A DNA stretch of 64,000 bases from Alphaproteobacteria bacterium (GTDB lineage: Bacteria; Pseudomonadota; Alphaproteobacteria; CAAHEQ01; UBA3637): assembly GCA_045613285.1 (NCBI GenBank), contig JAZLAQ010000035.1, forward strand, positions 4,670 through 68,669, written 5' to 3'. Below the pieces are notes generated by a model. It saw only the letters and a program-made list of their open reading frames with translations, was not told where the DNA came from and did not search any database. Of the stretch, positions 60,135-64,000 are shown piece after piece (position 1 is the stretch's first letter; each line of letters opens with the position of its first letter). The translations under genes and the position numbers were made by a program.

Positions 60135-61583
60135 TTATCCTTTACTTTTAGAAATCAACAGATTGTCTTGTGTGAATTCACCGCCGATGGCCTTATAAAA
60201 GTGGATGAGATTCGTGTATAATGTTCCTGCGGATTTAATCATCTGAATTTGGGCTTGCAGGCGGTTTTGTTCGGCTTGTAACACGTCGGTATAATCAATC
60301 AGTCCGTTGGTGTATTTGCTTTGCATCAATTGTGCTACGTTGTCGGCGTGATTAAAGGTTTCTTGTAATAGCAGATAGTGTTGATGTTCCTGATAAAGCG
60401 AAATGATTGCATTTTTTATTTCATTAGCCGCTTGTAAAAGAGCTTGTTGATAGGTCAGTATATATTCTTCTTTTAGAGCTTTTTGTACGGCTATATTTTC
60501 TTTTAATGCCCCAAAATGGAAAATTGGGGTTGTAATACTAGGGGTAATAGTATGCCCTAGACTGTCTTTTCTCCAAAGTTTTCCCCATGTTAAAGATTCA
60601 AATCCCAATAAGGCGGAAAGGCTTATTCTGGGAAACATATCAGCAATTGCAGCTCCGACCAAAGCATTTTGTGCAATCAGGTTTTCTTCTGCCGCTCGGA
60701 CGTCCGGACGATGACGCAGAATATCTGCTGAAATCAGGGTTACTTTTTCTAAATCAAAATCAAAGGGACGGGTAATCAGGGATTCCTTGTTTTGTTTTAA
60801 TAAATCATCAATACCACCGGGGAGTTCCCCCAATATCAAAGCCAAGGCGTTTTTACTTTCCATCAGCTGATATTCTAAATCCGTCAAGGTTGCAGATGTA
60901 TCTTTCAGTAGATAAAGGGCTTGTTCTAAAGAAAGAACGCTGGAAATTCCCGTCTGTTGCTTATCCCGGACAAGTGCCGTCATTTCTTCCTGTAATCGGA
61001 TATTTGCCTGTGTTTGTCGAACAAGTTCTTGTAAAGTTCGTGTTTGGATATAAATGCGTGCAACTTCTGTTGTTAAAGAAAGGGCGGTATTTTGAACGGC
61101 ATAAAGTGTCGATTTTAGGTTTGCTTTTTCAGCTTCAATACGTCTGTTTTGTCCACCGAACAGGTCTATTTCCCAAATAACATCCAGACCAGCCTGATAA
61201 TAATCTTCGGTTAAAATTTGCCCCATGTTTTTACTATTTTTAACATTATTATATTGGGCTGTTATATCCAATGTCGGGAAAAGTCCCGCTTTTGCAATAG
61301 CCAGTTTTGCCCGTGTTCCTCGTAGTCGCCAAAGAGCCTGTTTTAGAGTCGGATTGTTTTCTACTGCTTTGTCAATCACAGTATCCAGTGTGGGGTCATT
61401 TAAATCCTGAGGTGTAAAATAATGATTTTCTCTTGTTGATGTATTAAGGGCTTTTTGAAGTTCTGTTTGTGTGAAAAATTGAGGTTGTTCATAATCGGGT
61501 CCCACGGTGCAAGCCGATAAAAAACCTCCTAAAATCAAAACATATAAAAGGTTGACAATCTTCTTTTTTGATGTGTATTTCAA
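60135..61583 (-). other. Outer membrane factor (NodT family) module; possible independent TTG start at 61583
   Basis: TTG at 61583-61581 (minus) would give MKYTSKKKIVNLLYVLILGGFLSAC, a canonical lipoprotein signal; lipobox Cys at 61511. Confidence 0.5.
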
Positions 61584-64000
61584 AGAAATCTTATCAAAAA
61601 AAACAAAGTAAGCCGGTACAAATAAAATACCGATAAGAGTTGCGGCAATCATGCCATAAAAGACTGTTGTTCCGATGGCTCTCTGACTGGCGGCACCTGC
61701 ACCTGTCGCGATAACCATTGGAAATGTCCCTAAAATAAAGGTCAAAGCCGTCATGATAACCGCCCTAAAACGTTCACCGGCTCCTTTCAGGGCTGCTGAT
61801 GTTGTATCTATACCGGATCGTCGATATTTAATTGTAAACTGAACAATTAAAATGGCATTTTTACTGGCTAGTCCTATAAGCATGACAATACCCAATTGTG
61901 CATAAATGCTTAAAGATAAACCTGATAATTGTAAACCGAGTAAAGCACCTAAAATTGCAAAAATATTACTTAAAATTACGGCTATTGCAATCCACCAACT
62001 TTCATAAAGAGCGACTAAAAAAAGGTAGCAAAAAATTAGAGCAAGGATAATCAGAATAACGGCTAAACCTGCGGTTTCAACCTGTTGAAGGGTTAAACCT
62101 GTCCACGAAAACGAAAAGTCTTTTCCTAAATCAGGTATGAATTTTTGAAGATCTTTCAGTGCAGTTCCTGAGCTGATATGTGGTGCTGTTTGAGCTGTAA
62201 CTCCTGCACTTAAATACTGATTAAAACGATAAATGATTTTAGGACTAACTACAATTTTTTCGGTTAGAAAGTTTTGAATTTGAATCAATTCCCCAAAAAC
62301 ATTCGGAACATATAGTTGCCCGATGTCAGGAATATCCTGACGAGCCGGAAAATCGGCTTGAATAATGACCTTGTTGATTTGTCCGTCAACGGTGATGTTG
62401 TTTATATATCGTGACCCTAAATTATTTTGTAAAACAGAAAACAAATCAGACAGTTGTATCTGAAAAGCAGATAATTTTATGCGGTTTATATCCAGATAAA
62501 CATGTGGTGTATCGGTTGTAAAGGGTGAAAAACCGTAAGAAAAAAGACTATTTTTATTTATGAACAACAATGTTTTTTGTAAGGCTTCATCTAACTCTTG
62601 AGGTGTTGTTTTCAAATTTAAGGCGTTTAATTGAAAGTTGATACCATCGGCATTTCCGATTCCGGGAATGGAAGGCATGGCAAAAAAATTGATATCTGCT
62701 TCGGGATGTCCTGAAAATTTTTGCGTCAGTTTGGATAGAATTGAATCCATCGAAATCCCTTGCTTATCTCGTTCATCCCATGGAGTTAAAACAATGGCAG
62801 CCATACCGATATTTTCTCCGCTTGCCGAAAGCATACTATTTCCGGAAATGCCGATAAAGGACTGAATGCCGGAAATTTGACGTGCTTGTGCAGATATATG
62901 GTGTAATAAGGCTTCTGTTTGATTAATACTGGCGGTTGAGGGTAATTGTACCGATGCCATGATAATTCCCTGATCCTCTTGAGGTACAAATCCTTTGGGA
63001 ATTAAGAAAAATAAGTAGCCTAATAAACAGATAATCCCACAGGTAAGAATTAAAGTTGTTTTGATATGGAAACATAAAAAAGAAACACTTTTAATGTAAA
63101 ATTTTTCACATTTTTCTAAAAAGGAGTTAAAAATATTCATCCAATACAAAGGAAGTTTTATCTTCTTTTTTAAAAAAATGGCACACAGAACCGGACTTAA
63201 AGTCAGAGCATTAATCGCCGAAAAGAACACGGCAGTCGCCAAAGTTACTGAAAATTGCTGATATATTTTACCTGTTATACCGGCCATAAGTCCTACCGGA
63301 ATAAAAATAGCCATCAGAACCAAGGTTGTTGCGACAACAGATGCAGAAATATCTTTCATTGCTTGTACCGATGCTTGAGAACCAGTCATGTGTTTGTATT
63401 TTATTAGGTATTGAACACGTTCTACAACCACAATAGCATCATCTACGACTAAACCAATTGCTAAAATCATTGCAAATAAAGTTAATATATTAATATCAAA
63501 TCCCAACATATAAATGACAACAAAAGTCGCAATCAGCGAAACCGGAATGGTTATCATCGGAATCAGAGTTGCCCATGCATTTTGTAAGAAAATATAAACA
63601 ACAATCATTACCAGTAAAAATGTTAATGCTAAGGTTATTAAAATAGATTGAATGCTGGATTTAACAAAAGTTGTTGAATCATAAACAATTTCAAATTTAA
63701 TATCATCCGGAAAGGATTTTTCCAATGCTTCCATTTCTTTTTTTAGATTTTTCATGATTTCCAAAGAATTAGAATTAGGCAGTTGTGATAGAGCCATTAC
63801 GACAGACGGTTGATTATTAAAACTGGCATTTAATTGATAACTGTCGGCCCCCATTTCAATGCGTGCAATATCCTTTAATTGAATGATACTTCCCGATAAA
63901 TTAGCTCGGACAATAATTTCTTCAAAATCTTCTATAGTAGAGAGTAGCCCTTTTGTCATAACGGAAAGTATCTGATTGGTATTTTGAGGAGCAGGGGCTG
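60135..64000 (-). CDS. RND (AcrB-family) efflux permease read in frame into a NodT/OprM-family outer-membrane-factor lipoprotein; 5' end beyond window
   Basis: AcrB TM signature GLVVDDAIVVVE, TM12 and tail …FFDKISLKYTSKKK continue with no stop into KIVNLLYVLILGGFLSAC|TVGPDYEQP (lipobox + OMF N-terminus) and a TolC-like domain to 60135; reading frame continues upstream to the window edge. Confidence 0.75.
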   Translation of the reverse strand, partial: APAPQNTNQILSVMTKGLLSTIEDFEEIIVRANLSGSIIQLKDIARIEMGADSYQLNASFNNQPSVVMALSQLPNSNSLEIMKNLKKEMEALEKSFPDDIKFEIVYDSTTFVKSSIQSILITLALTFLLVMIVVYIFLQNAWATLIPMITIPVSLIATFVVIYMLGFDINILTLFAMILAIGLVVDDAIVVVERVQYLIKYKHMTGSQASVQAMKDISASVVATTLVLMAIFIPVGLMAGITGKIYQQFSVTLATAVFFSAINALTLSPVLCAIFLKKKIKLPLYWMNIFNSFLEKCEKFYIKSVSFLCFHIKTTLILTCGIICLLGYLFFLIPKGFVPQEDQGIIMASVQLPSTASINQTEALLHHISAQARQISGIQSFIGISGNSMLSASGENIGMAAIVLTPWDERDKQGISMDSILSKLTQKFSGHPEADINFFAMPSIPGIGNADGINFQLNALNLKTTPQELDEALQKTLLFINKNSLFSYGFSPFTTDTPHVYLDINRIKLSAFQIQLSDLFSVLQNNLGSRYINNITVDGQINKVIIQADFPARQDIPDIGQLYVPNVFGELIQIQNFLTEKIVVSPKIIYRFNQYLSAGVTAQTAPHISSGTALKDLQKFIPDLGKDFSFSWTGLTLQQVETAGLAVILIILALIFCYLFLVALYESWWIAIAVILSNIFAILGALLGLQLSGLSLSIYAQLGIVMLIGLASKNAILIVQFTIKYRRSGIDTTSAALKGAGERFRAVIMTALTFILGTFPMVIATGAGAASQRAIGTTVFYGMIAATLIGILFVPAYFVFFDKISLKYTSKKKIVNLLYVLILGGFLSACTVGPDYEQPQFFTQTELQKALNTSTRENHYFTPQDLNDPTLDTVIDKAVENNPTLKQALWRLRGTRAKLAIAKAGLFPTLDITAQYNNVKNSKNMGQILTEDYYQAGLDVIWEIDLFGGQNRRIEAEKANLKSTLYAVQNTALSLTTEVARIYIQTRTLQELVRQTQANIRLQEEMTALVRDKQQTGISSVLSLEQALYLLKDTSATLTDLEYQLMESKNALALILGELPGGIDDLLKQNKESLITRPFDFDLEKVTLISADILRHRPDVRAAEENLIAQNALVGAAIADMFPRISLSALLGFESLTWGKLWRKDSLGHTITPSITTPIFHFGALKENIAVQKALKEEYILTYQQALLQAANEIKNAIISLYQEHQHYLLLQETFNHADNVAQLMQSKYTNGLIDYTDVLQAEQNRLQAQIQMIKSAGTLYTNLIHFYKAIGGEFTQDNLLISKSKG

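Follow-up and report, generated by a model that had tools for sequence, protein, structure and literature searches.

An in-frame fusion of an RND permease and an outer membrane factor with a predicted internal lipoprotein signal peptide in an alphaproteobacterial genome

The main machinery of intrinsic multidrug resistance in Gram-negative bacteria is the tripartite pump built around a permease of the resistance-nodulation-division (RND) type, which, to our knowledge, has always been described as three separate proteins. A 64,000-nucleotide stretch of an alphaproteobacterial contig (GenBank JAZLAQ010000035.1, positions 4,670 to 68,669, assembly GCA_045613285.1), referred to here as the window, contains an open reading frame (ORF) on the minus strand that extends from 60135 to beyond 64000 and passes from the C-terminus of an RND permease into an outer membrane factor (OMF) with no intervening stop. 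Translation of the minus strand over 60135–63998 produced 1,287 codons and no stop codon. The read-through agrees with an initial annotation of the locus, which had placed the transition at 61480–61640 while leaving the strand of the gene unstated.

Both halves of the ORF were identified by profile searches. The first ~220 amino acids of the permease fall past the window edge at 64000. The remainder matches the Pfam ACR_tran profile (PF00873) over residues 7–801 (profile positions 222–1020 of 1021, E = 1.8e-210) and the NCBIfam profile NF000282 (RND_permease_1) over residues 2–801 (positions 222–1027 of 1029). That the NF000282 score of 821 bits falls short of the full-length cutoff of 1250 is due solely to the ~220 N-terminal amino acids outside the window. 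The nearest solved relatives of the permease half are CmeB, MtrD, MexB and AcrB, with alignments covering chain residues ~225–1028. Three motifs, VVDDAIV, ASKNAIL and RFRAVIMT, were read by eye in the translation; these are presumably the motifs in which D407/D408, K940 and R971 act as the proton relay of AcrB. Unlike the family norm, in which the chain ends just after transmembrane (TM) helix 12, this chain runs on for 488 residues made up of a signal peptide and the OMF. The OMF half matches TIGR01845 (outer_NodT) over residues 826–1273 (profile positions 6–459 of 460) with a score of 288.6 bits against a cutoff of 210.05, and Pfam OEP (PF02321) in two stretches. Among proteins of known structure it matches OprN (E = 1.4e-45), and also CmeC, MtrE, OprM and CusC. 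Since the profiles reach the ends of the models on both sides, both modules are complete at the junction, and the gap of ~30 residues between them corresponds to the OMF signal peptide. The features of the ORF are collected in Table 1.

Table 1. Modules and junction elements of the fused reading frame, in coordinates of the window.
Feature	Coordinates	Strand	Basis or remark
RND permease portion, HAE1, AcrB/CmeB-type	61596..64000	-	Pfam and NCBIfam profiles
T8 homopolymer (GTT TTT TTT GAT) in the last RND codons; incidental	61596..61603	-	Not conserved in orthologues
Basic cytoplasmic linker DKISLKYTSKKK, net charge +4, containing an in-frame TTG (61583-61581)	61560..61595	-	
Hydrophobic h-region IVNLLYVLILGGFLSA, 16 aa, of signal-peptide-typical length	61512..61559	-	
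Lipobox L-S-A-C; predicted Lgt lipidation and LspA cleavage between A829 and C830	61509..61520	-	PS51257-type pattern
Mature OMF, NodT/OprN-type, 458 aa	60138..61511	-	TIGR01845, Pfam OEP; stop codon at 60135-60137

The junction reads ...GILFVPAYFVFFDKISLKYTSKKKIVNLLYVLILGGFLSAC-TVGPDYEQP... or, in longer context, ...VPAYFVFFDKISLKYTSKKKIVNLLYVLILGGFLSAC-TVGPDYEQP.... Its Cys is residue 830 of the window translation, approximately residue 1050 of the full precursor, and lies 31 residues past the last RND-homologous residue. The signal peptide is situated at about residue 1020–1050 of the precursor and not at the N-terminus of its own chain. The sequence fits the PS51257-type lipobox pattern, which we take to be {DERK}(6)-[LIVMFWSTAG](2)-[LIVMFYSTAGCQ]-[AGS]-C with a preceding K or R, but the Cys is located far beyond the ~35-residue N-terminal limit of lipoprotein precursors. 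The linker DKISLKYTSKKK may be viewed as the C-terminal tail of the permease reused as the n-region of an internal signal peptide. The h-region that follows is predicted to span the membrane in an N-in/C-out orientation, in the role of either a 13th helix or an internal signal peptide. When aligned with the mature OprN chains (PDB: 5iuy and 5azo), the Cys coincides with residue 1 and identity extends over seven residues, CTVGPDY; thus, the OMF fold follows the hydrophobic segment without a spacer. The residue following the Cys (+2) is Thr and not Asp.

When one genome per species was scanned, seven related loci (L001–L007) were identified, all from uncultured Alphaproteobacteria. Four of these, L001–L004, come from metagenome-assembled genomes (MAGs) and share 77, 75, 68 and 68% identity, respectively, with the fusion. 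Each presents a single stop-to-stop ORF of 1,502–1,531 amino acids that contains both modules, and in L001 (fusion gene at 3160-7668), where the permease is complete, the ACR_tran match covers profile positions 3–1020 of 1021. The initial annotation had looked to close relatives with separate genes and a stop at this position as a sign of assembly error; none was found at 68–77% identity, and the permease and OMF are separate genes only in L005–L007, at 41–43% identity. The ratio dN/dS is 0.06–0.09 in both halves, while dS exceeds 1.5 and synonymous sites are saturated. From the saturated dS and the low dN/dS, it follows that the open junction has been maintained over a long divergence. The gene fusion is almost certainly genuine and not a sequencing artefact.

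The architecture extends well beyond these relatives. With a junction-spanning query of 721 amino acids, 22 proteins containing an RND tail and an OMF were found at 33–81% identity, 21 of them flagged by both Pfam domains and one (P0024) added by a phmmer scan. A HMMER search of 1.84 billion cluster representatives (50% identity) provided 29 more fusions among the best 150 matches, 19 of which are 1,428–1,557 amino acids in length. The collected set contains 56 sequences, from Alphaproteobacteria, Kiritimatiellota, Acidobacteriota/Bryobacteraceae, Muribaculaceae, Prevotella and one MAG labelled 'FCB group'. One fusion (WFB35000.1) is encoded at about 3,064,355-3,068,866 in the complete 4.43-Mb genome of Kiritimatiellota bacterium B12222 (CP120722.1), apparently an isolate. 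Another cluster, P0121, with 45% identity over the 721-residue query, has 13 members from independent assemblies, every one of 1,502 amino acids. In the databases, the fusions are labelled merely as an RND permease or as an OMF. The description of a covalent RND-OMF fusion as very unusual is therefore fair with respect to the literature but overstated for the sequence databases, where the architecture occurs in at least four phyla.

The elements of the junction are retained across this set. In 52 of the 56 fusions, a net-positive n-region precedes an h-region of 10–23 amino acids (median about 15), a small residue at position -1 and the Cys; none of these fusions has Asp at +2. The PS51257-type pattern fits 48 of the 56 fusions and 77 of 102 unfused OMF N-termini, as compared with 13 chance matches over the remaining 59,530 residues of these proteins. 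Of the four exceptions, three (P0153, P0182 and P0224) have no lipobox Cys; in these, the hydrophobic segment is followed by an AxA-like motif (e.g. ...FTSAKA-S... and ...ALSA-P...). This suggests a TolC-like, non-lipoprotein version of the fusion that may be processed by signal peptidase I.

Considered together, the sequences make it probable that the fusion is selectively maintained and encodes a precursor polyprotein from which the OMF would be released as a lipoprotein. Processing by the lipoprotein pathway is likewise the likely route of release. In AcrB-type permeases, the C-terminus after TM12 is cytoplasmic, and a signal peptide that follows it would thus insert in the N-in/C-out direction. 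In the proposed sequence of events, the 12-TM permease would be inserted co-translationally into the inner membrane with its C-terminus left on the cytoplasmic side. Together, the basic tail DKISLKYTSKKK and the hydrophobic segment of 16 residues would then act as an ordinary signal peptide, N-in/C-out, threading the OMF domain into the periplasm. Lgt would lipidate the lipobox Cys, LspA would cleave just ahead of it, and the mature OMF lipoprotein would proceed to the outer membrane by way of Lnt and Lol. Since the +2 residue is Thr, the OMF is not expected to be retained in the inner membrane. The permease would keep the signal peptide as an extra C-terminal 13th helix, and the adaptor, a membrane fusion protein (MFP), would be supplied by the gene immediately upstream. 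With the RND and OMF subunits fused and the MFP encoded upstream, the pump would be made from two genes with an obligatory RND:OMF ratio of 1:1. A guaranteed 1:1 output of subunits that assemble as trimer on trimer is a plausible benefit.

Several points weigh against this interpretation. Retention of the lipobox could partly reflect a recent origin of the fusion in some clades. The literature search returned no documented action of Lgt or LspA on a lipobox downstream of a 12-TM protein, and we know of no such case. The completeness of the operon in the window is also judged from its orthologues, as the window ends at 64000, short of the permease N-terminus and any adaptor gene.

Cleavage of the precursor outside the Lgt/LspA pathway, by signal peptidase I or another protease, is unlikely for the fusion in the window. 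The three Cys-less fusions with AxA-like motifs imply that signal peptidase I use at internal signals does seem to occur in the same architecture. However, the window fusion and 51 others present a canonical lipobox with no obvious AxA site, and the predicted mature N-terminus matches that of lipidated OprN.

A covalent fusion that is never cleaved, with the hydrophobic segment serving permanently as a 13th TM helix that tethers the OMF to the permease, is improbable to a similar degree. No sequence feature proves cleavage and a few fusions have longer h-regions of 21–23 amino acids, as would suit a tethered form. Against tethering, the alignment of the Cys with mature OprN residue 1 leaves no spacer, while established pump structures place the N-terminus of an OMF at the outer membrane, with tens of nanometres separating it from the inner one. 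Fusions at 26–45% identity also keep the Cys, a small residue at -1 and a residue other than Asp at +2, although a plain anchor would need none of them, and the median h-region length is signal-peptide-like. It is similarly doubtful that the precursor is left uncut, or is cut only late or conditionally, so as to serve as a single envelope-bridging polypeptide or as an assembly intermediate with regulated maturation; the lack of a spacer after the Cys and the conserved lipobox argue against both.

The initial annotation had offered two alternatives, a covalent fusion whose signal peptide becomes an internal TM segment or cleavage site, and independent initiation of the OMF at the in-frame TTG (61583). 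The first is supported by the read-through in all four close relatives and some 50 further database proteins, and by the retained lipobox. The second, in which the OMF would be initiated at this TTG or at some other internal start and the fused form would be a by-product of a lost stop, is very unlikely. Translation from the TTG would yield MKYTSKKKIVNLLYVLILGGFLSAC, a textbook lipoprotein signal peptide, and L001 and L003 retain an in-frame ATG 12–13 codons ahead of the Cys. However, the TTG is found only in the window and L003, being replaced by CTC, CTT and TTA in L001, L002 and L004, respectively, and in L004 no ATG, GTG or TTG is present within the 32 codons preceding the Cys. The Shine-Dalgarno (SD) interaction ahead of the TTG has a dG of -1.5 kcal/mol against a background mean of -1.2 kcal/mol, and all candidate starts in the fusions are at background level. 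A Met at -13/-12 relative to the Cys occurs only in L001 and L003, where it may be the ancestral OMF start; the residue aligned at -13 is Leu in the window, Gly in L002 and Ile in L004.

The unfused relatives provide a contrast. In L006 and L007 (CALXXX010000019.1 and CASDQF010000014.1), with the same gene order and 42–43% identity over the query, the OMF begins MKFWFLVCFLCVTAC-TVGPDYEQPQFF. Unlike in the window, the stop codon of the permease and the start codon of the OMF overlap (ATGA) and are preceded by AAGGAG, with an SD energy of -8.5 kcal/mol that is beyond the 1st percentile of the background. Thus, the expected start and SD signals are present when the genes are unfused and have been lost in the fusions. 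In L005 (6276-6440), which is also unfused, the OMF ORF apparently begins far upstream of the hydrophobic segment (MKIKRKFLKTSPFEKNMKIDIMKDICSLKVHTKYRKDLMFYLWILSA...); either this OMF has an unusually long N-terminal extension or its true start is further downstream.

A missed stop or frameshift at a homopolymer, as the initial annotation had cautioned, was a reasonable concern. If the T8 run, which lies four codons upstream of the TTG, contained a sequencing or assembly error, the permease would really end in TGA or TAA and the OMF would be a separate gene: one extra T leads at once to TGA TAA, and one T fewer gives a TGA overlapping the TTG in a classic TTGA junction. Such an error is nonetheless extremely unlikely. 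The same in-frame fusion is present in four species-level relatives that do not have the homopolymer; their junction DNA differs from that of the window and from one another, with GTT TTT TTT replaced by GTT ATT TTT, GTT TTC TGT, GCT TTT TTT and GCC TTT TTT in L001–L004. A/T runs of at least 8 number 38 in the window at 36% GC, which makes T8 unremarkable, the TTG has no preceding SD, and about 50 more fusions are found in the databases. A programmed -1 frameshift at T TTT TTT would lead immediately to TGA and a free permease, but was rejected as a conserved mechanism since none of the four orthologues has the slippery run; it would additionally leave the OMF untranslated. That the locus is a decaying or inactive pseudogene is just as remote, for although one relative (L008) has a broken RND part, both modules in the window have end-to-end profile coverage, dN/dS is 0.06–0.09 and the motifs taken to hold the proton-relay residues are intact. 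L008 (P0004; CAVDQP010000060.1, 1346-6207) is fused at 49% identity and its RND part is divided between overlapping ORFs at 1346-3475 and 3472-6207, which indicates a frameshift or assembly error.

With respect to origin, the fusion has probably arisen repeatedly and independently in different phyla. In a rough neighbour-joining tree of 161 OMF domains, the fusions were divided among 19 all-fused clades and the state changed at least 13 times; given the crudeness of the tree and a sample biased toward the query, the exact number of events is uncertain. Compared with unfused proteins, the two halves of the window fusion share 68–70% (RND tail) and 45–47% (OMF) identity, as opposed to about 51% and 36% with the Kiritimatiellota-type fusions. 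The state changes and the closer similarity of both halves to unfused proteins make repeated origin likely, and a single ancient fusion passed on by descent is unlikely on the same grounds. Most likely, a stop was lost where it overlapped a start, as in the ATGA of the unfused relatives. In an overlap like that of L006 and L007, a one-base insertion or deletion or a stop loss would suffice to fuse the frames, making these loci a plausible model of the ancestral state. Two linkers are of note in this regard. That of L008 is 74 amino acids in length as compared to ~30, and resembles a translated former intergenic spacer. The linker of P0024 (...AKMRKIEIVLLGFLAASC) has seemingly kept an old start Met and short signal peptide inside the fusion, consistent with an origin by stop loss and read-through of the spacer.

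An MFP gene is located directly upstream of the fusion in L001, L009, L010 and L011, with an overlap of 4 nucleotides between the two genes in L001. In Kiritimatiellota bacterium B12222, the operon is ordered TetR-MFP-fusion. The window itself is ordinary chromosome with a GC content of 36%, containing mfd, rpoD, dnaG, uvrA, thrS, pyrG, two tRNAs and a signal recognition particle (SRP) RNA, and the composition of the fusion locus matches its surroundings. Synteny with L001 is not conserved downstream, where L001 has AlgX-like, MBOAT and GT2 genes. In the window, the region just downstream (54514-59870) contains ORFs that are mostly without Pfam matches (324, 179, 169 and 376 amino acids) and a 412-residue protein with a weak DUF6782 putative metallopeptidase domain. 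Elsewhere, an 810-residue ORF with a CagE/TrbE/VirB4 domain (type IV secretion ATPase) lies amid housekeeping genes at 28108-30540 on the minus strand. Rfam identified the bacterial small SRP RNA at 19401-19495 on the plus strand, and an ffh sRNA motif at 416-466 on the minus strand with a score of 36.1 bits, barely over the gathering score.

The nearest described systems are MexEF-OprN of P. aeruginosa and CmeABC of C. jejuni, which consist of the same components and have the adaptor gene upstream, as in the fusion orthologues. There, the permease and OMF are made as two polypeptides from two genes and the signal peptide of the OMF is N-terminal, whereas here there is one ORF and the signal is internal. 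A precedent for the proposed processing may be the cytochrome b-c1 precursor FbcH of Bradyrhizobium japonicum, in which signal peptidase I reportedly cleaves an internal signal (work attributed to Thony-Meyer and colleagues, around 1989-1991). As in the RND-OMF fusion, a polytopic inner-membrane protein is said to be followed by an internal signal peptide, with cleavage freeing a periplasm-facing subunit at a ratio of 1:1. The difference is that both FbcH products are said to remain at the inner membrane, while the fusion has a predicted lipobox for the LspA route and its product would go to the outer membrane.

No natural RND-OMF fusion or internal lipobox was found described in the full-text literature, an absence which is no proof that none was ever noted. 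Such a fusion is likewise not mentioned in the Reddy and Saier survey of outer-membrane-protein fusions (PMC4827864), nor in the available portion of the Chem Rev 2021 review of tripartite pumps (PMC8277102). Among fusions in the RND superfamily, Thermus thermophilus SecDF (PMC8277102) is an uncleaved join of two inner-membrane halves. SecDF-like fusions resemble the present case in placing subunits of one machine in a single chain and differ from it in that the joined proteins are not destined for different membranes.

The RND-OMF fusion is recurrent, under purifying selection, built from ordinary parts and apparently undescribed, and its organisation differs from that of every described tripartite pump. 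It would be a clean natural case in which to test whether a lipobox located behind a 12-TM protein can be processed by Lgt and LspA, and the permease would be left with an unprecedented 13th helix. The arrangement also suggests a simple route to an enforced 1:1 RND:OMF stoichiometry, possibly with local co-assembly of the two subunits. There is an issue for annotation as well. When fusions of ~1,500 amino acids are labelled for one function, the second is lost in resistome surveys, and the carriers include gut Prevotella, Muribaculaceae and Alphaproteobacteria.

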